A stretch of DNA of 64,000 nt, taken from sequence record PP952733.1. One strand, written 5' to 3'. The position numbers were made by a program, and so were the translations under genes. Shown in pieces: positions 9,508 through 18,160 of this stretch. A model generated the notes under the pieces. It was not told where the DNA came from. It worked only from the letters and a program-made list of their open reading frames with translations, and made no database searches. Source of the DNA: Escherichia phage vB_EcoM_H12. Position 1 is the stretch's first letter. Each line of letters starts with the position of its first letter.

Positions 9508-10923
9508 ATGAGCGAATTATTTAAACATGCGCACCTTCATGCAGGTCGAACTGAAAATGGTGCTGTAAACCATACTTCATCAATGTCTGCTCTGGTAGAC
9601 TTCTACAAAGCCGCTGGCTCAAGCCGTAGCAATGTAGAAATCTTACCAGACCTGTTCTACAAAGCTTTGCGTGAGGATGTTGATGTTGCAGTTCGTATTT
9701 TACTGCATATGCGAGATGTACGAGAAGGTATGGGTGAGCGTAAAGCTTTCCGAACTGTTTTACTTCAAGCGATTGAAGATAAAGTTTTAGAGCCTACACA
9801 GGTTCTTCGCATTATGGATAAGATTGCAGAACTTGGTCGTTTTGATGACTTCAAAATCTTCGTAGGTACTCGTTTTGAGACAGATGCCTTCAAACATTTA
9901 GAAGCAGCATTACTAGACCCTGCAACAGCAGGTTTAGCGGCTAAGTGGTTACCACGAGTAAAACCACGCCACAAACAGTTTGTAAAACGTTTCTGTAAGT
10001 TTGCAAACTTAAGTGAGAAGGAGTATCGCACGCTGTTATCTGCACTGTCTGATACGGTTGAGCAAAAAATCTCTGCTAATGAGTTTGGTAAGATTGACTA
10101 CAGCAAGATTCCTTCACTCGCTGCTGCACGTTACCAAAAGCTCTTTAACCGTAAAGATGGGGAACGTTACAAAGCTTACATCGAGTCCCTCTCAAAAGGT
10201 GAGGCTAAGATTAACGCTGGTGCTGTTTACCCATACGATGTGATTAAATCTATCAAGTATGGTAATGCAGATGTTGCTAATGAGCAGTGGAAAGCACTAC
10301 CAAACTGGATGGCAGAAGGTGAGAACATCTTGTGTATGACTGATGTTTCAAGCTCAATGTCTTGGGTGAATCTTGGTTCAATCACTGCCCTTGATATTGG
10401 TGTATCACTTGCTTTGTATGTAGCAGAACGCAACACTGGTTGCTTTAAGAATGAGTTAATGGTTTACTCAACAAACCCTCACTTCATCGAACTGAGTGGT
10501 GATTTACGAAACCGTCATCGTCAGGTAATGCGTCATGTTGAATACGGTTCAACTAACTTACAAGCAGCTTTTGACCGTATTCTTGAGGTAGGTAAGCGAA
10601 ACAACTTGACTCAGAAAGATATGCCAAGTAAGCTTATTATCTTCTCCGATATGGAGTTCAATCAGGTTGATGGAGCTAACGGTCGTACAAACTTTGAAGC
10701 AATTCAGAGTAAGTACAAAAAAGCTGGATACGAAATGCCACAACTAGTATTCTGGTACTTAGCAAACCGTAATGGTACTTGCGAAGTATCTGTTAAGGAT
10801 AATGGTGTAGCAATGGTATCAGGGTTCTCTCCAGCCACTTTAAAAGCTCTGCTTGGTGGTGAGAAGTTTGACCCAATCAGCATAATGCTCAAAGCGGTAA
10901 TGATTGACCGTTACATCTGGTAA
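9508..10923 (+). CDS. vWA-domain protein with MIDAS motif and long helical N-terminal domain; candidate Ro60-like (TROVE-vWA) protein
   Basis: DxSxS MIDAS motif (CMTDVSSSMSW) about residue 277 preceded by hydrophobic strand; about 270-aa N-terminal domain; TROVE-like assignment is inference from domain layout only. Confidence 0.6.
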   Translation: MSELFKHAHLHAGRTENGAVNHTSSMSALVDFYKAAGSSRSNVEILPDLFYKALREDVDVAVRILLHMRDVREGMGERKAFRTVLLQAIEDKVLEPTQVLRIMDKIAELGRFDDFKIFVGTRFETDAFKHLEAALLDPATAGLAAKWLPRVKPRHKQFVKRFCKFANLSEKEYRTLLSALSDTVEQKISANEFGKIDYSKIPSLAAARYQKLFNRKDGERYKAYIESLSKGEAKINAGAVYPYDVIKSIKYGNADVANEQWKALPNWMAEGENILCMTDVSSSMSWVNLGSITALDIGVSLALYVAERNTGCFKNELMVYSTNPHFIELSGDLRNRHRQVMRHVEYGSTNLQAAFDRILEVGKRNNLTQKDMPSKLIIFSDMEFNQVDGANGRTNFEAIQSKYKKAGYEMPQLVFWYLANRNGTCEVSVKDNGVAMVSGFSPATLKALLGGEKFDPISIMLKAVMIDRYIW

Positions 10924-10934
10924 AAAGTTTTAAA

Positions 10935-10970
10935 AAGGGTATTGACAATGTGTTTAATACCCTTTAATAT
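10935..10970 (+). promoter_or_regulatory. Sigma70-like promoter (TTGACA-17-TAATAT) embedded in a 9-bp inverted repeat
   Basis: TTGACA at 10942-10947, TAATAT at 10965-10970; AAGGGTATT / AATACCCTT arms flank the -35 box. Confidence 0.55.
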
Positions 10971-11033
10971 GTTCTACATAGAAACGAAATGAGAGCTTTT
11001 CTAAGATACTGAAAAATATTTTAAAAAAGTTCT

Positions 11034-11062
11034 TGACAACCACTAAAAAATAATGTTAAAGT
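11034..11062 (+). promoter_or_regulatory. Promoter-like element upstream of tRNA array
   Basis: A-tract then TTGACA at 11034-11039; weak -10 (TTAAAG). Confidence 0.4.
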
Positions 11063-11088
11063 GGTTACATAGAGTTTGAAAAGTTTAT

Positions 11089-11165
11089 CTCTGTTTAGCT
11101 CAGCTTGGTAGAGCGTTCCGTTTGGGGCGGTAAGGCCGGAGGTTCAAGTCCTCCAACAGAGACCA
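11089..11165 (+). tRNA. tRNA-Pro (anticodon UGG)
   Basis: Cloverleaf folded by hand: 7-bp acceptor CTCTGTT/AACAGAG, anticodon loop TTTGGGG, T-arm GGAGG-TTCAAGT-CCTCC, CCA encoded. Confidence 0.85.
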
Positions 11166-11172
11166 AATTAAT

Positions 11173-11250
11173 GTTCCAGTAGACAAAATGGTAAAGTCAC
11201 CACTCTTTCAAAGTGGATATTTGAGGGTTCAAATCCCTTCTGGAACGCCA
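11173..11250 (+). tRNA. tRNA-Glu (anticodon UUC)
   Basis: Acceptor GTTCCAG/CTGGAAC, anticodon loop CTTTCAA, T-loop TTCAAAT, CCA encoded. Confidence 0.8.
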
Positions 11251-11257
11251 GTTTTGA

Positions 11258-11330
11258 CAGAAGACCAATTGCAGCAAACTTAATCTTATTCATCTGACAC
11301 GAAATCGGACAAAGAAGAGATTTGGTCTGG
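11258..11330 (+). ncRNA. Stem-closed RNA-like element A (CAGAAGACCAAT...TTTGGTCTGG)
   Basis: Terminal inverted repeat AGACCAA/TTGGTCT enclosing about 50 nt; conserved CAGCAA next to 5' arm; one of four related elements. Confidence 0.4.
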
Positions 11331-11341
11331 TCATTAAGAAT

Positions 11342-11418
11342 TGCGGGTATAGAGAAAGGGCGTCTCACATGTCTCATTAGCATGGTATCGGCAGGTTCGA
11401 CTCCTGCACCCGCCTCCA
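11342..11418 (+). tRNA. tRNA with anticodon CAU (Met or Ile2 type)
   Basis: Anticodon loop CTCATTA, T-arm GCAGG-TTCGACT-CCTGC, CCA encoded; first acceptor pair mismatched. Confidence 0.75.
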
Positions 11419-11424
11419 AATTTA

Positions 11425-11488
11425 CAGAAGACCGTTTACAGCAATATTTATTAAATTTTTAGCGGAAAAATTGAAAGATACGGTCTGG
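11425..11488 (+). ncRNA. Stem-closed RNA-like element B (CAGAAGACCGTT...ACGGTCTGG)
   Basis: Terminal inverted repeat AGACCGT/ACGGTCT; compensatory changes relative to elements A and C. Confidence 0.4.
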
Positions 11489-11501
11489 TAATACTAAACA
11501 T

Positions 11502-11578
11502 GGTTAGGAAGCACATAAGGTATGTGCGGTCGCCTGTTAAGCGAATGGCACAGGGTTCGAATCCCTGACTAACCGCCA
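11502..11578 (+). tRNA. tRNA-Asn (anticodon GUU)
   Basis: Anticodon loop CTGTTAA, T-arm CAGGG-TTCGAAT-CCCTG, CCA encoded. Confidence 0.8.
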
Positions 11579-11587
11579 AATTTAAAT

Positions 11588-11675
11588 GTGTCGTTATCCC
11601 GTAGATGGTAGCGGTGGGGACTGTAAATCCCTTGTCATTGAGACTCGGTAGGTTCGACTCCTACACGGCACACCA
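11588..11675 (+). tRNA. tRNA-Tyr (anticodon GUA), long variable arm
   Basis: Anticodon loop CTGTAAA, about 14-nt variable arm, T-loop TTCGACT, CCA encoded. Confidence 0.8.
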
Positions 11676-11681
11676 AATAAA

Positions 11682-11759
11682 GGTTATGTAGTTTAATCTG
11701 GTTAAAATACTCCCCTGTCACGGGAGATGATGAGGGTTCAAATCCCTTCGTAACCGCCA
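11682..11759 (+). tRNA. tRNA-Asp (anticodon GUC)
   Basis: Anticodon stem CTCCC/GGGAG with loop CTGTCAC, T-loop TTCAAAT, CCA encoded. Confidence 0.8.
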
Positions 11760-11845
11760 AATTATAATAAGTATTTCAAAATGATGTTTGAGAGGGCTAT
11801 TCAGCCCCTCCCTTAAAGAGTTTTTACGAGTATTCTTTAAAGGAG

Positions 11846-11918
11846 CAGAAGACCAAATTCAGCAAGTTACTTAAAATTTCAAGCCAATTTAATTTTGAAA
11901 AATTTAAAACTTGGTCTG
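11846..11918 (+). ncRNA. Stem-closed RNA-like element C (CAGAAGACCAAA...TTGGTCTG)
   Basis: Terminal inverted repeat AGACCAA/TTGGTCT; conserved CAGCAA after 5' arm. Confidence 0.4.
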
Positions 11919-11932
11919 ACTCAACAAATTTA

Positions 11933-12064
11933 CAGAAGACCGTTTACAGCAAAACTTAAACAATCTATTTCTCCGGTAAAGAAAAGGCGAAGGTTCGATT
12001 CCTTCACTCGGCAGATGTCGAGTTGGTGTAATGGTAGCACTTAAGATGATAAACAACGGTCTGG
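11933..12064 (+). ncRNA. Stem-closed element D with permuted tRNA-like module (Y RNA-like candidate)
   Basis: Closing stem AGACCGTT/AACGGTCT; inside, in order: T-arm GAAGG-TTCGATT-CCTTC (11989-12005), 7-bp hairpin ACTCGGC-AGAT-GTCGAGT (12006-12023), D-arm-like TGGTGTAATGGTAGCAC; no anticodon arm or CCA. Confidence 0.45.
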
Positions 12065-12065
12065 T

Positions 12066-12209
12066 AATTATCTTTGTAGATAAGTTATTAAGCTTACTTG
12101 TGAGTATGCGACCACAAAGGGTGAAAGGGTAAATTCTAGATTTAAACCCAACAACGCACATCGCTACAGACCTTAAGCAAGTCTGGGTAGCTTATCTACA
12201 AAGATAATT
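12066..12209 (+). repeat. 19-bp perfect inverted repeat (AATTATCTTTGTAGATAAG / CTTATCTACAAAGATAATT) enclosing about 105 nt
   Basis: Arms at 12066-12084 and 12191-12209 are exact reverse complements; inner hairpin CAGAC-CTTAAGCAA-GTCTG. Confidence 0.6.
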
Positions 12210-12223
12210 TAATGGAAGTGTAG

Positions 12224-12289
12224 CAGAATGGTGATGCGGCAGACTTTTAATCTGACAGGCGATGGGTTCGAATCCCTCCACTTCTACCA
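12224..12289 (+). tRNA. tRNA-Lys (anticodon UUU)
   Basis: Acceptor GGAAGTG/CACTTCT, anticodon loop CTTTTAA, T-loop TTCGAAT (T-stem has two mismatches), CCA encoded. Confidence 0.7.
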
Positions 12290-12293
12290 ATAT

Positions 12294-12370
12294 GGTTCAG
12301 TCGCAGATAAGGTAATGCAGGGGTCTCATAAGCCCTATGAATGTGGGTTCGATTCCCATCTGAACCTCCA
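12294..12370 (+). tRNA. tRNA-Met (anticodon CAU), second copy
   Basis: Anticodon stem with three consecutive G-C pairs, loop CTCATAA, T-arm GTGGG-TTCGATT-CCCAT, CCA encoded. Confidence 0.75.
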
Positions 12371-12371
12371 A

Positions 12372-12447
12372 GCTGGTATAGTTAAGAAGGTTATAACACT
12401 CCCCTGATAAGGGAACATCGGTGGTTCGATTCCACCTACCAGTACCA
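12372..12447 (+). tRNA. tRNA-Ile (anticodon GAU)
   Basis: Anticodon loop CTGATAA, T-arm GGTGG-TTCGATT-CCACC, CCA encoded. Confidence 0.8.
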
Positions 12448-12462
12448 ATTTCAATAAAGTTG

Positions 12463-12491
12463 TTGACATTGAGATGTGACCACTTTATAGT
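12463..12491 (+). promoter_or_regulatory. Sigma70-like promoter TTGACA-17-TATAGT inside tRNA array
   Basis: TTGACA at 12463-12468, TATAGT at 12486-12491, upstream A-tract. Confidence 0.55.
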
Positions 12492-12783
12492 AACTAAAAT
12501 ACTTCATAATATGTATAATTCAAACACCAATACATGAGCGTTAGACGTAACACAATGTGGGGAAATTTGTTGTACATATTCTGAATAGTTTTCGTTGCGT
12601 AGCGTCTATTTTGCAAATTTAAAATAAATGCAAACGACAATGTTTTTCTGGCAGTAGCTTGATAGGCTAAACACCAGTGAGGTCTTCCAATCCCTCATCA
12701 AAGAATTTGGCGTACTAGCCCACGGTATGATTAATAAGGTGGGCATCTTTAAGTACTTTCTAAGAGAGTCTTTAAAGATTAAT

Positions 12784-12860
12784 GCACCCTTAGTTCAATT
12801 GGATAGAGCAACGGTCTTCTAAATCGTTAGTTACAGGTTCGAATCCTGTAGGGTGTGCCA
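12784..12860 (+). tRNA. tRNA-Arg (anticodon UCU)
   Basis: Acceptor GCACCCT/AGGGTGT, anticodon stem ACGGT/ATCGT with loop CTTCTAA, T-loop TTCGAAT, CCA encoded. Confidence 0.8.
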
Positions 12861-13001
12861 AATAGTTAGCAGATTGCTTAGACGACCTTATCGGGTCTCC
12901 GTGTAAGGAGGTGGTCTGTATCTCATGTTTCCAGAACATGTAAATAATCTGAGAAGGGGCTTTACAGTGTTGCGAAAATACGGTAAGCTTCGAATTATAG
13001 T

Positions 13002-13084
13002 GTGGGACGATGTTAAGACTCTAAGGCATGAGCAACGGCCTCCAAAACCGTTTCAAAGGGGTTCAACTCCTCCGTCCCATGCCA
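13002..13084 (+). tRNA. tRNA-Trp-like (anticodon CCA), atypical expanded D region
   Basis: Acceptor GTGGGAC/GTCCCAT, anticodon loop CTCCAAA, T-arm AGGGG-TTCAACT-CCTCC, CCA encoded; about 26 nt between acceptor and anticodon stem. Confidence 0.45.
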
Positions 13085-13097
13085 AAGTCTTATTAGG

Positions 13098-13185
13098 GGT
13101 AGGTAGCGGCTAATGGCAGCCAAACAGTCTTGAAAACTGTTGCCACTGTAGAGATACGGTGAGGGTTCGACTCCTTTACTTACCG
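13098..13185 (+). tRNA. tRNA-Ser (anticodon UGA), long variable arm
   Basis: Anticodon stem ACAGT/ACTGT with loop CTTGAAA, long variable arm, T-loop TTCGACT; CCA not encoded. Confidence 0.75.
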
Positions 13186-13340
13186 CCTAATAAGATTTAA
13201 AACCAAGCTTCATTCGGATGTTGCTTTGGTATCCCTCGTGTATTGTCGTACACAAGTAAAGCACCTAGTAGGTGTCACGGAGAAGAGATAATATCAAGCT
13301 CTCCAAAGGTTCTAGTCACCGGATTAAACAAGACTATGCA

Positions 13341-13361
13341 AAGACCTATTTAGGTCTTTTT
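13341..13361 (+). terminator. Terminator-like hairpin inside tRNA array
   Basis: AAGACCT-ATTT-AGGTCTT followed by TTT; AT-rich stem so probably weak. Confidence 0.4.
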
Positions 13362-13440
13362 AGAGGGCTTCTAAGGTTATTACAGCTTGTTGTGGAACCT
13401 TGTTGCTTAGGTTCTTAGAAGTTCTCTAAAAAGATTTAAT

Positions 13441-13518
13441 GGGAGATTGACGGTAATTGGTAAACCTACCATCCTTAGAAGTTGGTGTTTGAGGGTTCGA
13501 ATCCCTTGTCTCCTACCA
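13441..13518 (+). tRNA. tRNA with anticodon UAG (leucine-type anticodon) but short variable arm
   Basis: Acceptor GGGAGAT/GTCTCCT, anticodon loop CTTAGAA, 5-nt variable loop, T-arm GAGGG-TTCGAAT-CCCTT, A73, CCA encoded. Confidence 0.7.
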
Positions 13519-13525
13519 AATTAAT

Positions 13526-13601
13526 GCAGGTGTAGCAAAATGGTTATGCGGCTGACTCTTAATCAGTAAGACGATGGGTTCAATTCCCTCCACCTGTACC
13601 A
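13526..13601 (+). tRNA. tRNA-Lys (anticodon CUU)
   Basis: Close paralog of the UUU tRNA at 12224; anticodon loop CTCTTAA; CCA encoded. Confidence 0.75.
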
Positions 13602-13605
13602 AATT

Positions 13606-13681
13606 GGGGTCATAGTTTATATGGTTAAAATTCGAGTTTTGCAAACTTGGGAACTGAGTTCAATTCTCAGTGACTCCACCA
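13606..13681 (+). tRNA. tRNA-Ala (anticodon UGC)
   Basis: Acceptor GGGGTCA/TGACTCC, anticodon loop TTTGCAA, T-arm CTGAG-TTCAATT-CTCAG, CCA encoded. Confidence 0.8.
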
Positions 13682-13687
13682 ATTAGT

Positions 13688-13762
13688 GCATCCATAGTTT
13701 AAACGGGAAAATTACAGTCTTCCAAACTGAGGTTGAGGGTTCGATTCCCTCTGGATGCTCCA
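13688..13762 (+). tRNA. tRNA-Gly (anticodon UCC)
   Basis: Acceptor GCATCCA/TGGATGC, anticodon loop CTTCCAA, T-arm GAGGG-TTCGATT-CCCTC, CCA encoded. Confidence 0.8.
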
Positions 13763-13769
13763 AATTAAT

Positions 13770-13845
13770 GCTCCTATCGTATAATTGGCTATTACGGTTG
13801 CCTTGTAAGCAACTTATCAGGGTTCGAATCCTTGTGGGAGCACCA
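13770..13845 (+). tRNA. tRNA-Thr (anticodon UGU)
   Basis: Acceptor GCTCCTA/TGGGAGC, anticodon stem GTTGC/GCAAC with loop CTTGTAA, T-loop TTCGAAT, CCA encoded. Confidence 0.8.
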
Positions 13846-13850
13846 ATTCA

Positions 13851-13936
13851 GAGGTCAAGTGAAAGACCGCTTTGAGTCAACTGAAGACCGTAACAAATCC
13901 CACGGAGTTGAGTTAGCGGCACAACTTCAGACCTCT
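13851..13936 (+). ncRNA. Structured hairpin element between tRNA-Thr and tRNA-Val
   Basis: 6-bp closing inverted repeat GAGGTC/GACCTC around about 75 nt with nested complementary segments (TCAACT/AGTTGA) and a GAAGACCGT motif; no canonical T-loop. Confidence 0.35.
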
Positions 13937-13941
13937 TTCAT

Positions 13942-14016
13942 ACTCGCTTAGTTTATATGGTAAAACATCACCCTTACAAGATGAAGAAAAAGGTTCAAGC
14001 CCTTTAGTGAGTACCA
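13942..14016 (+). tRNA. tRNA-Val (anticodon UAC)
   Basis: Acceptor ACTCGCT/AGTGAGT, anticodon loop CTTACAA, T-arm AAAGG-TTCAAGC-CCTTT, CCA encoded. Confidence 0.7.
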
Positions 14017-14017
14017 T

Positions 14018-14095
14018 GTTCCAGTATCCCAATTGGCAGAGGATGCAAGCTCAAACCTTGTACTAGTGACGGTTCGAATCCGTCTTGGAACACCA
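14018..14095 (+). tRNA. tRNA with anticodon CAA (leucine-type anticodon) but short variable arm
   Basis: Acceptor GTTCCAG/TTGGAAC, anticodon stem GCAAG/CTTGT with loop CTCAAAC, 6-nt variable loop, T-arm GACGG-TTCGAAT-CCGTC, A73, CCA encoded. Confidence 0.7.
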
Positions 14096-14100
14096 ATTTT

Positions 14101-14176
14101 GCAGGATTAGTTCAAATGGATAGAGCAACAGTCTACGAAGCTGTTAATAGGGGTTCGAATCCCTTATCCTGCGCCA
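14101..14176 (+). tRNA. tRNA-Arg (anticodon ACG)
   Basis: Acceptor GCAGGAT/ATCCTGC, anticodon stem ACAGT/GCTGT with loop CTACGAA, T-loop TTCGAAT, CCA encoded. Confidence 0.8.
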
Positions 14177-14195
14177 ATTTAAAGAGGCTATTTAG

Positions 14196-14753
14196 ATGAG
14201 ATATTTGAAGTATGCTTCATGGATTTTCTTAGCTTTGTTAGAGCCATTTGCAGCAATCTTAGCAGTTATCTTAGCACCTTTTGTAGTTCCATTCTACAGT
14301 GAAAAGAAAGGACACTTACCTTTCGGCTTCAGATGGATGGAAACATATGACAACCCAATTGATGGTGATGAAGGTCATGTTGAACGATGGGCTAAGATTA
14401 GAAAGATTGGTAAGCTTGGTGTCTATATGCAGAGAGTTGGTTGGCTCTGGAGAAACAAAGCTTATAACTTCTCTTACCATGTGTTAGGAAGAGATGTAAA
14501 AGATGTTACTAAGTGGAAAGGTAATATCAATGTAAGTTCTAACCCTGAAGATAATCAGACAGGTTATCTCCTAATGTGGAACAGTAATGCTTGGGGATTA
14601 TTCGCTTTTATCCCATCAATTAAAGTCTTTGGTAAGCAATTCTACTGGAGAATTTATGTTGGATGGAAACTTAAAAGTGTTGTTCCAAAAGAAAGAGCAT
14701 TCTCAAGGGAAAGAGTTATGTTGGCATTCTTTATTCATCCACTAAGAAAGTAA
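14196..14753 (+). CDS. putative membrane protein (185 aa) encoded inside the tRNA array
   Basis: AAAGAGG RBS; N-terminal hydrophobic helix (WIFLALLEPFAAILAVILAPFVVPF); Trp-rich. Confidence 0.55.
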   Translation: MRYLKYASWIFLALLEPFAAILAVILAPFVVPFYSEKKGHLPFGFRWMETYDNPIDGDEGHVERWAKIRKIGKLGVYMQRVGWLWRNKAYNFSYHVLGRDVKDVTKWKGNINVSSNPEDNQTGYLLMWNSNAWGLFAFIPSIKVFGKQFYWRIYVGWKLKSVVPKERAFSRERVMLAFFIHPLRK

Positions 14754-14761
14754 AGATTTAA

Positions 14762-14837
14762 AGGGGATTAGTTTACAAGGTTAAAACCTCGGTCTTTGAA
14801 ATCGAAGAAGTTGGTTCAATTCCAACATCCCCCGCCA
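14762..14837 (+). tRNA. tRNA-Gln (anticodon UUG)
   Basis: Anticodon stem TCGGT/ATCGA with loop CTTTGAA, T-arm GTTGG-TTCAATT-CCAAC, CCA encoded; first acceptor pair mismatched. Confidence 0.75.
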
Positions 14838-14839
14838 AT

Positions 14840-14918
14840 GCTCCATTACTCCAATTGGTAGAGAGGCCAGACTTAAAATCTGTGTTATGTATCGGTTCGA
14901 ATCCGATATGGAGTACCA
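14840..14918 (+). tRNA. tRNA with anticodon UAA (leucine-type anticodon) but short variable arm
   Basis: Acceptor GCTCCAT/ATGGAGT, anticodon loop CTTAAAA, about 7-nt variable loop, T-arm ATCGG-TTCGAAT-CCGAT, A73, CCA encoded. Confidence 0.7.
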
Positions 14919-14923
14919 AATTT

Positions 14924-14999
14924 AGCGGTATAGCATAACTGGCAATGCAGCAGTCTCTGAAGCTGTCTTATTAAGGTTCAAATCCTTATGCCGCTGCCA
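14924..14999 (+). tRNA. tRNA-Gln (anticodon CUG)
   Basis: D-stem GCAT/ATGC, anticodon stem GCAGT/GCTGT with loop CTCTGAA, T-loop TTCAAAT, CCA encoded. Confidence 0.7.
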
Positions 15000-15030
15000 C
15001 TTCTAAGGATTCTTACGAGAGTCCTTAAAT

Positions 15031-15106
15031 GTGGCCTTATCATAAATGGTAATGACCCATGCTGTGAACATGGTCTATACGGGTTCAAATCCCGTAGGTC
15101 ACCCCA
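15031..15106 (+). tRNA. tRNA-His (anticodon GUG)
   Basis: Acceptor GTGGCCT/AGGTCAC, anticodon stem CCATG/CATGG with loop CTGTGAA, T-arm ACGGG-TTCAAAT-CCCGT, CCA encoded. Confidence 0.8.
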
Positions 15107-15111
15107 ATTTA

Positions 15112-15188
15112 TAGTCCAAGTAGCTTATATGGTTAAAGCGCGTGTCTGAAAAACATGAGAAGAGGGTTCAAATCCCACTGGACTACCA
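15112..15188 (+). tRNA. tRNA-Phe (anticodon GAA)
   Basis: Acceptor TAGTCCA/TGGACTA, anticodon loop CTGAAAA, T-loop TTCAAAT. Confidence 0.75.
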
Positions 15189-15204
15189 ATTTCAAAGGTG
15201 CTTA

Positions 15205-15939
15205 ATGAAAGAGATGACAGAACAAGGTAAGGAGATTTTTAATCTCTTAAAAACTGGTAAAGGGTTATCTAACCCCCTTATTACTGGTGCAGCAGTTCTC
15301 GGTGGAACAGTAGCTGCCTCTACATCACTTGTAAGCTCTATTAGCTCTGTAACAGACCCTACAATAAAGGATAAGCTTATTGCTGCTGGACTTACAACAG
15401 TTCTGCTTAACAGCTTTACCACAAGTCTGACAAGCACTACATCAACTACTAAAACACTGACAGATTACGGTCAAAAGTCCATTGATGAGTTTTCATCACG
15501 TATGCAGGTAGCAAAAGGTTATTCTAATGTTATGGGTGCAGCAGGTGAACAAGTTGGCTGTACACCATTTAGTGGTATTATGGGTGTTGCTACAGAGTAC
15601 GGTCAAAAAGCTATTGACACAATTAACAGCACACTAGACGGTGTTAATGATGTATTAAGTGACTTACAAGACGCTATTGACAAAGGTCTTGATACTATTT
15701 CTGATTTAGCTAACCAAGCTGTTAGTAAGATTAATGAAGGTATCTCGAAGATTACAGCTTATGCAGATGAAGTTGTGCAGATGATTGAAGAAGAAGCTGC
15801 CCTTATTGCAGAGTACCTTAAAACAAATATCAATGGGTTCTTAGCAGGTATCTTACCAGACTGGTTTGATGATGCTTGTAAAACTGGTGTAATTGATACT
15901 ATTGCAACACCAGAGATGAAGAACGCATTACAGAAATAA
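15205..15939 (+). CDS. hypothetical Ser/Thr-rich protein (244 aa) inside the tRNA array
   Basis: Start moved from track 15142 to ATG 15205 (AAAGG RBS) so it does not overlap tRNA-Phe; low-complexity S/T segment. Confidence 0.5.
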   Translation: MKEMTEQGKEIFNLLKTGKGLSNPLITGAAVLGGTVAASTSLVSSISSVTDPTIKDKLIAAGLTTVLLNSFTTSLTSTTSTTKTLTDYGQKSIDEFSSRMQVAKGYSNVMGAAGEQVGCTPFSGIMGVATEYGQKAIDTINSTLDGVNDVLSDLQDAIDKGLDTISDLANQAVSKINEGISKITAYADEVVQMIEEEAALIAEYLKTNINGFLAGILPDWFDDACKTGVIDTIATPEMKNALQK

Positions 15940-15941
15940 AT

Positions 15942-16034
15942 GGAAGATTAACCCTAAAAGGTAAGGGAGCAGTTTGCTAAACTGCCAGTAGCTGAGAAAT
16001 CGGTGTACCAGTTCAAGTCTGGTATCTTCCTCCA
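15942..16034 (+). tRNA. tRNA-Ser (anticodon GCU), long variable arm
   Basis: Acceptor GGAAGAT/ATCTTCC, anticodon stem GCAGT/ACTGC with loop TTGCTAA, long variable arm, T-arm ACCAG-TTCAAGT-CTGGT, CCA encoded. Confidence 0.8.
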
Positions 16035-16038
16035 ATTT

Positions 16039-16114
16039 GAATCCGTGACAGAAATGGATATGTACCTGTCTGCAAAACAGGTTTATAAGGGTTCGAGTCC
16101 CTTCGGATTCTCCA
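16039..16114 (+). tRNA. tRNA-Cys (anticodon GCA)
   Basis: Acceptor GAATCCG/CGGATTC, anticodon stem CCTGT/ACAGG with loop CTGCAAA, T-loop TTCGAGT, CCA encoded. Confidence 0.8.
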
Positions 16115-16276
16115 AGTTATTTTACTCTCTCTCAATTAAAATAATAATAATGCCCTGCTATAAGTATTCTTCCTTTCGCTACCGAAGAGTATTTTTAGAC
16201 AGGGCTTTTTTACAGAGTTATACTTTATAAGAAGACTTATACAGTATGTCTCTGACGTACATTGTGGTTTCTCCTT

Positions 16277-16300
16277 GACGGTCTCTGTACCGTCTTTTTT
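16277..16300 (+). terminator. Rho-independent terminator after the tRNA array
   Basis: GACGGT-CTCTGT-ACCGTC hairpin followed by TTTTTT. Confidence 0.7.
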
Positions 16301-16336
16301 AAGGGGAAACATGGTTAAATATTTGGAGAAAACATA

Positions 16337-16537
16337 ATGAGCGAGACCGTTTATAAAGAACTTTATGAAGCTAATAAGAAGCTAGAATTTATGCAGAATA
16401 CTATCATGGCAATTGCAGACAGATTATCTGTAGCAACAGGTATTGATATTAAAGAAGCATCTATGGATGCACTTCTTGATGCTGTTGATGCAAAGTTCGA
16501 AGTTAAGAAAGAAGAGACTGCTACAGACTCTGAATAA
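16337..16537 (+). CDS. hypothetical small acidic protein (66 aa)
   Basis: GGAG RBS; just upstream of large terminase; too small to call small terminase. Confidence 0.4.
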   Translation: MSETVYKELYEANKKLEFMQNTIMAIADRLSVATGIDIKEASMDALLDAVDAKFEVKKEETATDSE

Positions 16538-16558
16538 TTCTATTTGCGGAGGTGCTTA

Positions 16559-18160
16559 ATGGACTTAAATGCTGTTAAGCAGAAGCGAGTGGAAGATGTT
16601 AGGAAAGTCCTAGCTGGAGAGTTGGGGCTTTCTGATGAAGTAAAAGAAATTATCAAATCATTCGGTAAAGACCCCTCTAAATTCCTTCCAACTCAAATTC
16701 TGACTTTATTAAGATACACACCAGACCAAGTTAGACTTATCTTCAAATTGATGACTGATAAGAACTATGTAGCCCCTCAGCCGGGTTCTCAAGAGGTCTT
16801 TTTAAATACTAATGCTGACTTGGTTCTCTATGGTGGTGCTGCTGGTGCTGGTAAGACTGCTGCATTGTTAATGGACTCTTTAAGGTTTATTGATGACCCT
16901 AACTATAACGCTGTCTATTTCCGTCGAAACACAACACAGTTACAAGGTGGTTTGTGGCCTGCTGCAAAGAAACTATTTGGTAAGTTTGGTGGGGTTCCTC
17001 ACGAGCAGAAGATGACTATCACATTCCCTTCTGGGGCAACTATCAAGTTTACCTATCTAGAACTTGAAAAGCACGCTGAAGGTCATCAGGGTATTGAATA
17101 CTCAGCCATTTACTTTGACGAAGGTACACACTTCTCTGCTTCACAGATTTCATACCTACAGACTCGTCTACGTTCTGGGGCTGAAGGTGATTCATACATG
17201 AAGATTTCTATGAACCCAGACAGAGACCACTTTATTTATGATTGGGTAGAACCATTCTTAGATGAAGAAGGTTACCCAGACCCTGAAAAGTGTGGTCGTA
17301 TTCGTTGGTATGTAATGAATGATGGTGTTATGGTTTCTGATTGGGAGAGAGACAAGATTCTTGAAATGTTTCCTCTTGAGATTCCTCAAACATATACATT
17401 CATCTCTGGTACGATTGATGATAACCCAATTCTTGACTTCTTAGAACCTAAATATCGTGGTAAGTTGGAAAACAACACCCCTGTAAACGTTGCAAGACTT
17501 CGTTTCGGTAACTGGAAGGCTCGTGCAGAAGGTTCAAACTATTGGCAAAGACAATGGTGTGAAATTGTTGATTCACTCCCAGAAGATGTATTCGATGTCA
17601 GAGCATGGGACTTAGCAGCAACTTTACCATCTGAGATTAACCCTAATCCAGACTGGACAGCAGGTGTTAAGATGGGTAAATCTAAAAAAGACGGTTGCTA
17701 TTATATCATTGATGTAGTAAGATTTAGAGATAGACCCTCTGGAGTCGAAACACAAATTAATTTGACTGCTGAAAGTGACGGTAAGCGAACTGGTATTTTT
17801 ATCCCTCAAGACCCAGGCGCTGCTGGTAAATCCTACGCAACATCCCTCATCAGGAAACTTGCCGAGAAAGGTTATCGAGCAAGAGCTAAACCAACAAATA
17901 AAGATAAAGTTACCCGATTTGCGGGGTTTTCTGCTGCTTCTGAAGCTGGACTTGTAAAAGTCTTGAGAGGTAGTTGGAACGAAGCTTACTTCCAAGAACT
18001 TGAAGGTTTTTGTGGTGATGGTAAAACTAAAGATGACCAAGTGGATGCTACCAGTGATGCTTTCAACAGTCTTAACGAAGTTAAATTATTCAAGCCACCA
18101 TCAATGGGTGCTCACACAGACTTAGTGAGAGGAAACCCATATGAGGGGCTTAGACGTTGA
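16559..18160 (+). CDS. terminase large subunit
   Basis: Walker A LYGGAAGAGKT; start moved to ATG 16559 preceded by GGAGG (track starts at TTG 16544). Confidence 0.85.
   Translation: MDLNAVKQKRVEDVRKVLAGELGLSDEVKEIIKSFGKDPSKFLPTQILTLLRYTPDQVRLIFKLMTDKNYVAPQPGSQEVFLNTNADLVLYGGAAGAGKTAALLMDSLRFIDDPNYNAVYFRRNTTQLQGGLWPAAKKLFGKFGGVPHEQKMTITFPSGATIKFTYLELEKHAEGHQGIEYSAIYFDEGTHFSASQISYLQTRLRSGAEGDSYMKISMNPDRDHFIYDWVEPFLDEEGYPDPEKCGRIRWYVMNDGVMVSDWERDKILEMFPLEIPQTYTFISGTIDDNPILDFLEPKYRGKLENNTPVNVARLRFGNWKARAEGSNYWQRQWCEIVDSLPEDVFDVRAWDLAATLPSEINPNPDWTAGVKMGKSKKDGCYYIIDVVRFRDRPSGVETQINLTAESDGKRTGIFIPQDPGAAGKSYATSLIRKLAEKGYRARAKPTNKDKVTRFAGFSAASEAGLVKVLRGSWNEAYFQELEGFCGDGKTKDDQVDATSDAFNSLNEVKLFKPPSMGAHTDLVRGNPYEGLRR

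Follow-up and report, generated by a model that had tools for sequence, protein, structure and literature searches.

Two conserved spacers of a phage tRNA array as candidate RNA genes: a predicted tmRNA derivative with an arm complementary to host tmRNA, and a second structured RNA

The tRNA gene array of Escherichia phage vB_EcoM_H12 (sequence record PP952733.1), of which a stretch of 64,000 nucleotides (nt) was analysed here (the window), contains two long tRNA-free spacers that we call gap A and gap B. Our tentative reading, held with a little less than even confidence, is that both are non-coding RNA genes on the + strand, transcribed with the tRNA array. Gap A would encode the messenger half of a transfer-messenger RNA (tmRNA) that docks onto the tmRNA of the host, and gap B a separate RNA of the Ounavirinae. 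As judged from comparative sequence analysis, gap A RNA is best described as a tmRNA derivative that kept the messenger half, lost the tRNA-like half and carries an antisense 5′ arm instead. An earlier note on this DNA had suggested that the spacers could encode small RNAs; comparative evidence supports the RNA-encoding part of that claim, whereas discrete transcripts are only surmised. The tmRNA likeness of gap A, with its tag reading frame and antisense arm, was not spotted there.

The window comes from a Felixounavirus (Felix O1-like) genome, and its array is 97-99% identical to those of vB_EcoM_DE17, UAB_Phi87 and BPS17W1, which are Felix O1-like myoviruses of E. coli and Salmonella. In the array (11089-16114) ARAGORN identifies 26 tRNA genes, all of them on the + strand, and no tmRNA. 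Most adjacent tRNAs are spaced by 2-10 nt, and several long gaps break the array. Gap A lies between tRNA-Ile and tRNA-Arg (12448-12783, with the RNA-bearing part at 12497-12783) and gap B between tRNA-Ser(UGA) and tRNA-Leu(UAG); the latter extends to 13440 rather than ending at 13361, as had been assumed. When the array was aligned with six phages from Mooglevirus, Suspvirus and related lineages, cross-genus identity was 0.91 in the gap A core (12583-12750) and 0.94 in the gap B core (13237-13361), compared with 0.70-1.00 for tRNA genes. Two more gaps were conserved, 12861-13097 at 0.89 and 13846-13941 at 0.93. The conservation of both gap A and gap B exceeds chance. Spacers of phage tRNA arrays (here gaps A, B, X and Y) are conserved like tRNAs and merit RNA-gene annotation.

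Neither ARAGORN nor Rfam finds a tRNA in gap A (12448-12783) or gap B (13188-13440), as the earlier note had maintained. With Rfam at an expectation value (E) of up to 1, nothing real appears in gap B and only weak tmRNA-type matches appear in gap A, and no known RNA (tRNA, tmRNA or Rfam family) scores above threshold in either gap. Open reading frames (ORFs) of at least 20 amino acids (aa) are present in both gaps, but none is conserved among relatives, so the earlier verdict that they hold no credible ORF stands, and neither gap is protein-coding. Because the spacers are conserved like tRNAs, have no conserved ORFs and contain helices kept by compensatory or wobble changes, we regard them as encoding RNAs and not as filler.

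Gap A carries the reading frame expected of a tmRNA. The window reads AUAAAU GCA AAC GAC AAU GUU UUU CUG GCA GUA GCU UGA, that is, an A-rich frame-setting element (AUAAAU), the resume codon GCA and a short degron-like tag ORF, ANDNVFLAVA, followed by a stop; for comparison, the E. coli SsrA tag is ANDENYALAA. In a pattern scan of IMG/VR, 85 of 128 matches carry a 10-codon AN[DE]xxxxx[AV]A followed by a stop. Tag statistics were computed on 72 distinct family members, which have 30 distinct tag DNA versions encoding 18 distinct peptides. Every version is exactly 10 codons long, TAA, TAG and TGA all occur at the one stop position, and several peptides have 3-5 synonymous versions. Entropy is 1.03 at third codon positions and 0.61 and 0.53 at positions 1 and 2, and the ratio of nonsynonymous to synonymous polymorphism (pN/pS) is 0.66 in the tag frame versus 1.37 and 1.09 in the other two frames. 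The C-terminal pentapeptides FLAVA, YLAVA, VLMAA, MLMAA and MRVAA match the ClpXP degron consensus derived by experiment, [L/F/Y/W]-[L/A/R]-L-A-A, and the top-ranked ...LVA class (10.1101/2024.01.29.576913). Two guesses at tags matched to particular hosts were abandoned: a Salmonella tag ANDETYALAA was not confirmed, the retrieved subsp. arizonae tmRNA encoding ANDENYALAA and presenting the standard target, and the ANDSEMRVAA subtype, guessed to serve a host with a DSENY tag, belongs to SKA49, an E. coli phage.

The tag frame is followed, as in tmRNAs, by a stop-bearing helix 5 and then by pseudoknots, all with covariation (Table 1). Covariation was assessed in an alignment of 72 sequences against 500 shuffles and against controls slid by 1-3 columns. 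In the gap A structure, 98.0% of cells were paired, compared with 88.0% in shuffles and at most 48.5% in the slid controls, and 169 double-change cells were observed versus 42.7 in shuffles, a number that 0 of 500 shuffles reached. Both pseudoknots, PK2 and PK3, are of the H type and lie 3′ of the tag. Stem 1 of PK2 exchanges UA37/CG35, GC45/AU21 and AU56/GC14/UA2, and its stem 2 GC50/AU20/UG2 and AU59/GC13, with no unpaired case at these last two positions; in PK3, stem 1 exchanges CG53/GC10/UA9 and stem 2 occurs in 14 versions, all complementary. The PK3 loop bears the conserved sequence UGAUUAAUAA. Upstream of the resume codon, the sequence suggests a PK1-like A/U-rich stem.

The 5′ arm of gap A RNA is complementary to the host tmRNA, for which the full 363-nt tmRNA of E. 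coli K-12 was used. One motif, AGUUUUCGU, is near-invariant and equals host tag codons 3-6 (GAC GAA AAC U) in reverse complement. The arm in the window covers the A-rich upstream element, the resume codon and tag codons 3-6 of tmRNA, with 12 contiguous pairs between 12586-12597 and tmRNA 95-106. With RNAduplex, 49 of 49 distinct 5′ arms docked at the same tmRNA site, nt 54-107 or nt 76-115. Arms of the long type pair with nt 54-107 (from the 3′ half of PK1 across the A-rich element and the resume codon into codons 1-6) through 38-44 pairs at -37 to -54 kcal/mol, and those of the short type with nt 76-115 through 25-29 pairs at -26 to -30 kcal/mol. As RNAduplex z-scores are a weak statistic, because shuffles fold nearly as well, we relied instead on Smith-Waterman Watson-Crick local alignment of the reverse complement, applied to 11 arms with 1000 dinucleotide shuffles each. 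Antisense scores were 22-36, versus 12-15 in the sense orientation. For seven of the 11 arms, including that of the window, 0-4 of 1000 shuffles reached the antisense score, and for the other four 10-33 did; the window score of 28 was reached by 3 of 1000 shuffles, and the scores of Panisse and of the lambdoid locus L016 by 0. Gap A RNA has the sequence attributes of a trans-acting antisense small RNA: extended conserved complementarity (25-44 pairs at nt 54-115) and changes that preserve pairing.

Several features argue for selection on host pairing over inherited similarity. The arm pairs with its own tag region in cis at only -11 to -22 kcal/mol, compared with -26 to -48 kcal/mol in trans; the pairing in cis is weak because the phage tag block has diverged from that of the host. 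In each of the 19 versions, 8-11 of the 12 seed positions agree with the host block, whereas the homologous tag block of the phage itself departs from the host block at 3-9 of 12, and in many directions. At paired positions the arms vary only between C and U opposite a host G and between A and G opposite a host U. Long and short arms pair with overlapping but different host segments, and inserts of variable length sit in unpaired loops. It is these distinct segments, loop inserts, wobble-compatible variation and host-matched seed that favour selection. The target itself is nearly invariant in 120 Enterobacterales tmRNAs, including those of Escherichia, Klebsiella, Citrobacter, Enterobacter, Salmonella arizonae, an Erwinia species and Pantoea; the Yersinia tmRNA diverges at the target and pairs poorly. 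Enterobacter tmRNAs have U61, which faces an A in Enterobacter phage EspM4VN, whereas its relatives Vi01 and IME250 have a U opposite G61; by sequence, this A in EspM4VN appears as one phage-host compensatory change. From these patterns we infer that the gap A arm pairs physically with host tmRNA.

The earlier note had placed a promoter at 12463, and this sequence (TTGACA, 17 nt, TATAGT) is indeed the array's best sigma-70 match. It is conserved across genera at 0.91-0.97 identity, and its equivalents in Swiduovirus, Sashavirus, Jedunavirus and Kolesnikvirus lie directly against the RNA. In order, the gap A gene comprises the promoter, the antisense arm, a linker of 10-15 nt with AUAAAU, the resume codon, the tag, helix 5, PK2 and PK3; an RNase P cut at the 5′ end of tRNA-Arg presumably sets the 3′ end of the RNA. 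Between the promoter and the RNA body of the window lies a hairpin that is lineage-specific, missing from most Felixounaviruses and with an identity of 0.0 to other genera. An approximately 85-nt hairpin leader is common to this lineage, Chaseviridae phage SKA49 and Yersinia phage PYps3T (83-85% identity), and directly precedes the tmRNA-like RNA in this lineage and in SKA49 (locus L265, about 495-570). It is probably a functional leader module, and its distribution suggests a mobile or exchangeable regulatory or processing module.

Gap A RNA is widespread. Positions ~12583-12750 match unrelated phages at 70-87% identity, among them Ackermannviridae (Vi01 and relatives), Jedunavirus, Swiduovirus, Roufvirus, Sashavirus, N4-like Schitoviridae, Drexlerviridae, Chaseviridae and Erwinia Kolesnikvirus. 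The family comprises 614-683 of 50,697 phage records, and the element is found in 690 of 5426 complete E. coli genomes, mostly on P1-like plasmids. In these plasmids it follows the dam methylase terminator and precedes tRNA-Asn and tRNA-Thr, and in lambdoid prophages it occupies the late leader, between the Q antiterminator with tR′ and the holin gene. Nearby tRNA genes, where present, are always on the strand of the element. No matching record annotates the family as RNA; some database records annotate a 'hypothetical protein' in the gaps.

The tRNA-like half of a tmRNA is missing from gap A RNA, in which we found no acceptor stem with G3:U70, no T-arm and no 3′ CCA. Transcription would start 0-8 nt before the conserved 5′ motif in Felixounavirus, Kolesnikvirus, Swiduovirus-type phages, Sashavirus and Jedunavirus, and as the promoter adjoins the arm there is no room for an acceptor strand. 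The RNA is thus predicted to be incapable of being aminoacylated by itself. The best Rfam alignments are to two-piece tmRNA families and span the tag into PK2, at scores of 7-28 bits (window 20.4, locus L007 27.9), below the gathering thresholds of 47-84. Of 85 family loci, 82 are without an ARAGORN tmRNA call, as is the window. Of the three calls, one is false, using a tRNA-Met, and two fall on the IMG/VR viral contigs L089 (5328-5680) and L108 (2242-2637). These two contigs belong to a different family and carry complete circularly permuted two-piece tmRNA genes, with the tags ANDEVFALAA and ANDSVFALAA and an acceptor stem with G3:U70; their motif CCUCGUAACAGAAU is matched by the motif that follows PK2 stem 1 in the gap A family, CCUCAUCAAAGAAU.

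Several candidate readings were set aside. The sequence GUUUUCG was considered as a D-loop analogue and dropped once the arm proved antisense to host tag codons. T-arm modules beside the lambdoid and P1-like copies, considered as acceptor pieces, are separate hairpin cassettes and not complementary partners, and a tRNA-like region of the window (11956-12035) is without the G3:U70 pair. Pairing of CAGTGCTCTTTCC with GGTAAGAGCATTG, considered as a closing helix in lambdoid copies, is better explained by what we take to be lambda's own inverted-repeat cassette around the insert; the genomic context of the lambdoid copies was confirmed here.

How might an RNA with a tag frame selected for coding work without a tRNA-like half? 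The simplest reconciliation of the two, and for that reason our preferred mechanism, is that the phage RNA turns host tmRNA into a hybrid two-piece tmRNA, which we consider possible although on the unlikely side. The arm would dock the phage RNA onto host tmRNA from the 3′ part of PK1 to tag codon 6, replacing PK1 and masking the host tag frame. The alanine-charged tRNA-like domain of the host, with SmpB, would then enter stalled ribosomes, which would be redirected to resume on the phage tag frame, 10-15 nt from the duplex end. The distance from the phage resume codon to the duplex end approximates that from PK1 to the resume codon in the host, and the duplex occupies the place of PK1. In lambdoid phages, rescued ribosomes may also end up on the leader of the late mRNA, immediately before the lysis genes.

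Several points weigh against this reading of gap A, which is computational throughout. The K-12 tmRNA served as a proxy and may not be that of this phage's own host, and the docking of 49 arms does not amount to 49 independent observations, family members being related. The window itself has an arm of the short, weaker type, with 29 pairs formed by 12581-12615 at -28.6 kcal/mol; its RNAduplex energy z of -2.5 is reached by shuffles (long type, -3.7 to -5.8), and a contiguous-match statistic for the window alone gives a modest p of about 0.035. As the pairing statistics of the window are modest, the case leans on the family. The 3′ arm of the leader hairpin (12503-12585) overlaps the antisense seed, so that pairing would require its removal or opening. 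As the phage tags resemble ordinary degrons, a gain from swapping tags is not evident. The ribosome would have to accept a template tethered by an antiparallel duplex, and a duplex of ~40 base pairs (bp) could be a substrate for RNase III, which may sever the arm from the tag frame.

The main rival is that gap A RNA acts purely as an antisense inhibitor or sponge of host tmRNA, blocking the resume region or triggering its cleavage, with a vestigial, untranslated body that serves stability or co-localisation. The complementarity speaks for this account exactly as it does for the hybrid tmRNA, and a long interrupted duplex could plausibly be cut by RNase III. Synthetic anti-tmRNA oligonucleotides, used in ribosome display and cell-free translation, suppress tmRNA-mediated release in vitro (PMC3384345), and mycobacteriophage DS6A offers a precedent, a phage tmRNA derivative without a tag reading frame that inhibits host tmRNA (PMC11915505). 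However, pure inhibition does not explain why the tag is always 10 codons long and ends in any of the three stops at one position, why it varies synonymously and at third positions, why its peptides resemble degrons or why the AUAAAU-GCA element is conserved, and we consider it unlikely.

Compared with tmRNA (SsrA; RF00023) and two-piece or permuted tmRNAs (RF01849, RF01850, RF04321), gap A RNA shares the A-rich element, the GCA, a 10-codon tag of the AND...AA type, the stop codon in the helix 5 loop, H-type pseudoknots after the tag and sub-threshold Rfam matches. Unlike them, it is without acceptor stem, T-arm and CCA end, has only two downstream pseudoknots and carries the antisense arm in place of the tRNA-like strand, P2 and PK1. 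Like the DS6A RNA it is a phage-encoded partial tmRNA, and interference with host trans-translation is known for DS6A and predicted for gap A; the two are mirror images, DS6A keeping the tRNA-like half and gap A the tag frame with the antisense arm. A classic anti-ssrA oligonucleotide is complementary to the tag region around GACGAAAACUAC and the resume codon. The gap A arm is complementary to the same tag-coding region of tmRNA; unlike the artificial DNA oligonucleotides, of which it would be the natural counterpart, the phage RNA occurs in nature, is structured and is joined to a tag frame of its own.

Ribosome rescue by tmRNA is nearly universal in bacteria and is a drug target, and phages known to depend on tmRNA include lambda-P22 hybrids and Mu. 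The known relations between phages and tmRNA have consisted of such dependence, of whole tmRNAs carried by phages or of one decoy of the tRNA-like half alone. In open-access papers and bioRxiv we found no prior description of a phage tmRNA-like, anti-tmRNA or decoy RNA of this family, and Rfam 15 has no family for gap A RNA. If our reading holds, messenger half and anti-tmRNA arm together would provide a new viral route to take over or shut down host quality control; a hybrid tmRNA, if real, would be categorically new, since a virus would then reprogram trans-translation through an RNA that has no tRNA-like domain. The RNA lies unannotated in hundreds of phages, including model phages and therapy candidates, its carriers being P1-like and lambdoid prophages and Felix O1-like, Vi01-like, N4-like and other enterobacterial phages. 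The weight of the finding is with gap A; gap B alone is of modest interest.

Gap B probably encodes a conserved structured RNA that, as far as the sequence allows, would be released as a stable small RNA by tRNA-processing enzymes. Its homologues are confined to Ounavirinae of E. coli, Salmonella, Shigella and Citrobacter (253 records, besides two mislabelled ones), and no similarity was found beyond this subfamily. Felix O1-like tRNA-array sequence that is 96-98% identical also occurs in the database records GU169904.1 ('Staphylococcus phage SA1') and MG065664.1 ('Campylobacter phage A132'), which are probably chimeric or mislabelled. The 0.94 identity of the core holds across Felixounavirus, Mooglevirus and Suspvirus, with ~90 nt invariant across genera. 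Folding of the + strand (z = -3.4) gives five hairpins and a terminal helix of 24 bp; the internal-hairpin sequence quoted in the earlier note, GCACCTAGTAGGTGTC, is at 13261-13276.

Pairing in gap B was tested on seven genus-level sequences. In the terminal helix, 95.8% of cells are paired, with two double changes and five wobble-type single changes (U-G to C-G, A-U to G-U), which point to a + strand RNA because the opposite strand would have C-A mismatches. The structure and covariation analysis that the earlier note had called for thus came out in favour of the gap A helices, which covary, and of the gap B terminal helix, which is compensated, but not of the gap B structure as a whole: 85.5% of its cells are paired versus 84.9% in shuffles, a value that 59 of 500 shuffles reach and that is not significant with seven sequences. 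The core hairpins are invariant and therefore neutral on structure, carrying no covariation information. Both points weaken the case for gap B as a structured RNA.

The same note had described a terminator-like hairpin with a T-run at the end of the second stretch. The quoted motifs are there (AAGACCT 13341-13347, ATTT 13348-13351, AGGTCTT 13352-13358, TTT 13359-13361), but they make a poor intrinsic terminator. In place of a G+C-rich stem followed by at least five U, 13341-13358 has three G-C pairs and is followed by UUU and then AG; the 'T-run' amounts to five T, two of them within the stem, leaving three U after it. A terminator consensus scan of 10500-17000 made no call at 13341-13358. The small hairpin is pairable in seven of seven genus-level relatives, with two wobble-type changes. 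It and the 24-bp helix are mutually exclusive because both use 13350-13359; the helix sequesters the U-run of the hairpin and is the better supported of the two. The helix may be a processing site for a double-strand-specific (RNase III-type) enzyme, and the hairpin with its U-run may be a weak attenuator at most. Gap B resembles intrinsic terminators and attenuators in having a conserved hairpin followed by a U-run, plus an alternative helix that sequesters it, but differs from terminators in its three G-C pairs, its three U, the missing scan call and the tRNA genes that continue directly downstream.

No cloverleaf match, as a tRNA or tRNA pseudogene would give, was found in gap B by ARAGORN or by the Rfam tRNA model at E up to 1. 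BLAST found no match to gap B in E. coli genomes. Against 16S, 23S and 5S ribosomal RNA (rRNA), rnpB, 6S, 4.5S and tmRNA, no complement of 11 nt or more was convincing, and the rest of the window holds no antisense match of 13 nt or longer. The best analogy is with 'species 1 and 2' (rnaC, rnaD) of phage T4, stable non-tRNA RNAs of the T4 tRNA cluster that are released by tRNA-processing enzymes and whose function was long obscure. Like these, gap B RNA would be a non-tRNA RNA embedded in a phage tRNA operon, and its release as a stable species is predicted from location and conservation.

Both gaps could also be mere processed spacer, with hairpins that guide processing by RNase P, E or III or punctuate transcription and with no stable or functional product. 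Their location inside a polycistronic tRNA array fits this view, as do the 24-bp helix suited to RNase III at the end of gap B, its weak hairpin with U-run and the lack of a gap B target among host stable RNAs or within the window. However, the 2-10 nt between other tRNAs of the array indicate that long spacers are unneeded, the ~90-nt invariant core of gap B far exceeds what processing signals need, and gap A occurs without an adjacent tRNA in Vi01, Jedunavirus, Sashavirus and lambdoid phages. We therefore judge this explanation improbable.

We give little credence to a further possibility, that gap A RNA is the coding piece of a true split tmRNA whose acceptor piece lies elsewhere and whose complementarity to the host is a by-product of common ancestry. 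It draws on the complete permuted two-piece tmRNAs of L089 and L108 with their homologous PK2 motif, on the two-piece families as best Rfam matches and on the T-arm 'tRNA-like modules' that adjoin family members in lambdoids and P1-like plasmids. Yet there is no 5′ acceptor strand, with promoters abutting the arm, neither the window nor small genomes such as swi2 and KLPPOU148 yielded an acceptor piece, the T-arm module, which the window does not have, is found at varying positions and does not complement the RNA ends, and the arm matches the host and not the phage's own sequence. Scarcely credible, finally, is that the gaps encode small proteins (a 46-aa minus-strand ORF at 12606-12746, or ORFs of 36 aa and 48 aa in gap B): such ORFs exist, and some records annotate them as 'hypothetical protein', but ORFs of at least 30 aa in either gap vary in strand, length and presence across relatives, ten gap A family members and the gap B of pEC-M719 have none of that length, indels of 5 and 11 nt disrupt the gap B frames, and base-pair covariation explains the conservation instead.

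Table 1. Predicted features of gaps A and B (window coordinates)
Feature	Position	Strand	Evidence or remark
Sigma-70 promoter of gap A RNA (TTGACA, 17 nt, TATAGT)	12463-12491	+	11/12 match
Leader hairpin between promoter and RNA body	12503-12585	+	fold, z = -2.85
Anti-tmRNA arm	12581-12620; seed UAGUUUUCGUUG 12586-12597	+	complementary to E. coli tmRNA nt 76-115
Resume codon GCA, 10-codon tag ANDNVFLAVA, stop TGA	12630-12662	+	family-wide coding signature
Helix 5 analogue, stop codon in loop	CTGG 12648-12651 with CCAG 12674-12677	+	covariation GC:42 / AU:25
Pseudoknot PK2	12678-12710; stem 1 12678-12682 with 12693-12697; stem 2 12687-12690 with 12707-12710	+	covariation
Pseudoknot PK3	12711-12744; stem 1 12711-12716 with 12724-12729; stem 2 12718-12723 with 12739-12744	+	covariation
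3′ terminal hairpin before tRNA-Arg (starts 12784)	12745-12779	+	fold
Gap B RNA, conserved structured non-coding segment	13188-13440	+	conservation, fold, no conserved ORF
Gap B hairpins	13202-13230 (variable), 13235-13256, 13261-13275, 13279-13304, 13307-13347	+	fold
Small terminator-like hairpin (AAAGACC with GGUCUUU) and short U-run	13340-13361	+	pairable in 7 relatives
24-bp terminal helix, apical branch	13350-13373 with 13416-13439	+	fold, compensatory changes

Other RNA-like features were noted in the array. In the 454-nt Asp-to-Lys gap, 11956-12035 has tRNA-like parts in the order expected of a circularly permuted tRNA: an anticodon-like arm, a T-arm (GAAGGTTCGATTCCTTC) and the 3′ acceptor strand ACTCGGC come first, and 4 nt further on are the 5′ acceptor strand GTCGAGT that matches it and a segment like a D-arm. 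Rfam gives this region a partial tRNA match of 22 bits only. Downstream of it, ATTATCTTTGTAGATAAG (12067-12084) and its partner (12191-12208) form an inverted repeat of 18 bp. The same gap contains a 13-nt perfect complement to 23S rRNA nt 1176-1188 (12146-12158), which is near chance after multiple testing. An 11-nt perfect complement to host tmRNA nt 116-126, the tag stop codons, at 12084-12094 is likewise near chance and falls in a poorly conserved stretch.

The conserved Arg-to-Ser gap contains TAAGGAGGTGGTCTG (12904-12918), which is complementary to the 3′ end of 16S rRNA (nt 1528-1542) with a perfect 10-nt Shine-Dalgarno core; a hairpin comes next, with an ATG 13 nt after GGAGG, and the sequence could be a ribosome-binding decoy or an unusual small ORF. 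Positions 13003-13084 are likely a non-canonical tRNA-Trp(CCA), going by the sequence, that ARAGORN does not call. This segment has a 7-bp acceptor (TGGGACG/CGTCCCA), a T-arm (GGGGTTCAACTCCTC), an oversized D region and an anticodon loop that is 9 nt long or mismatched; its sole Rfam match is a 23-bit tRNA-Sec, and the tRNA-Trp of the Erwinia relative is normal. A fourth conserved non-tRNA segment, 13846-13941 between tRNA-Thr and tRNA-Val, has a stem of AGAGGTC with GACCTCT and is probably another structured RNA.

In lambdoid phages, late leaders (L016, L031, L019, L136) carry tandem RNA 'cassettes', each flanked by an inverted repeat, CACAACAGGTAAGAGCATTG / CAGTGCTCTTTCCGTTGTG, that covaries in P1-like plasmids (L135), where GGTAAGGGTA pairs with TACCCTTACC. 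One recurrent cassette is a tRNA-like module of a hairpin and a T-arm (GGTAGAGGGTTCGAATCCCTACC), which no tRNA finder calls. Among protein-coding neighbours, the array of the window includes a 185-aa ORF (14196-14753) between tRNA-Arg(ACG) and tRNA-Gln, hydrophobic in its N-terminal half and annotated in relatives as a conserved Felix O1 phage protein, and some relatives have HNH homing endonuclease genes in neighbouring spacers.

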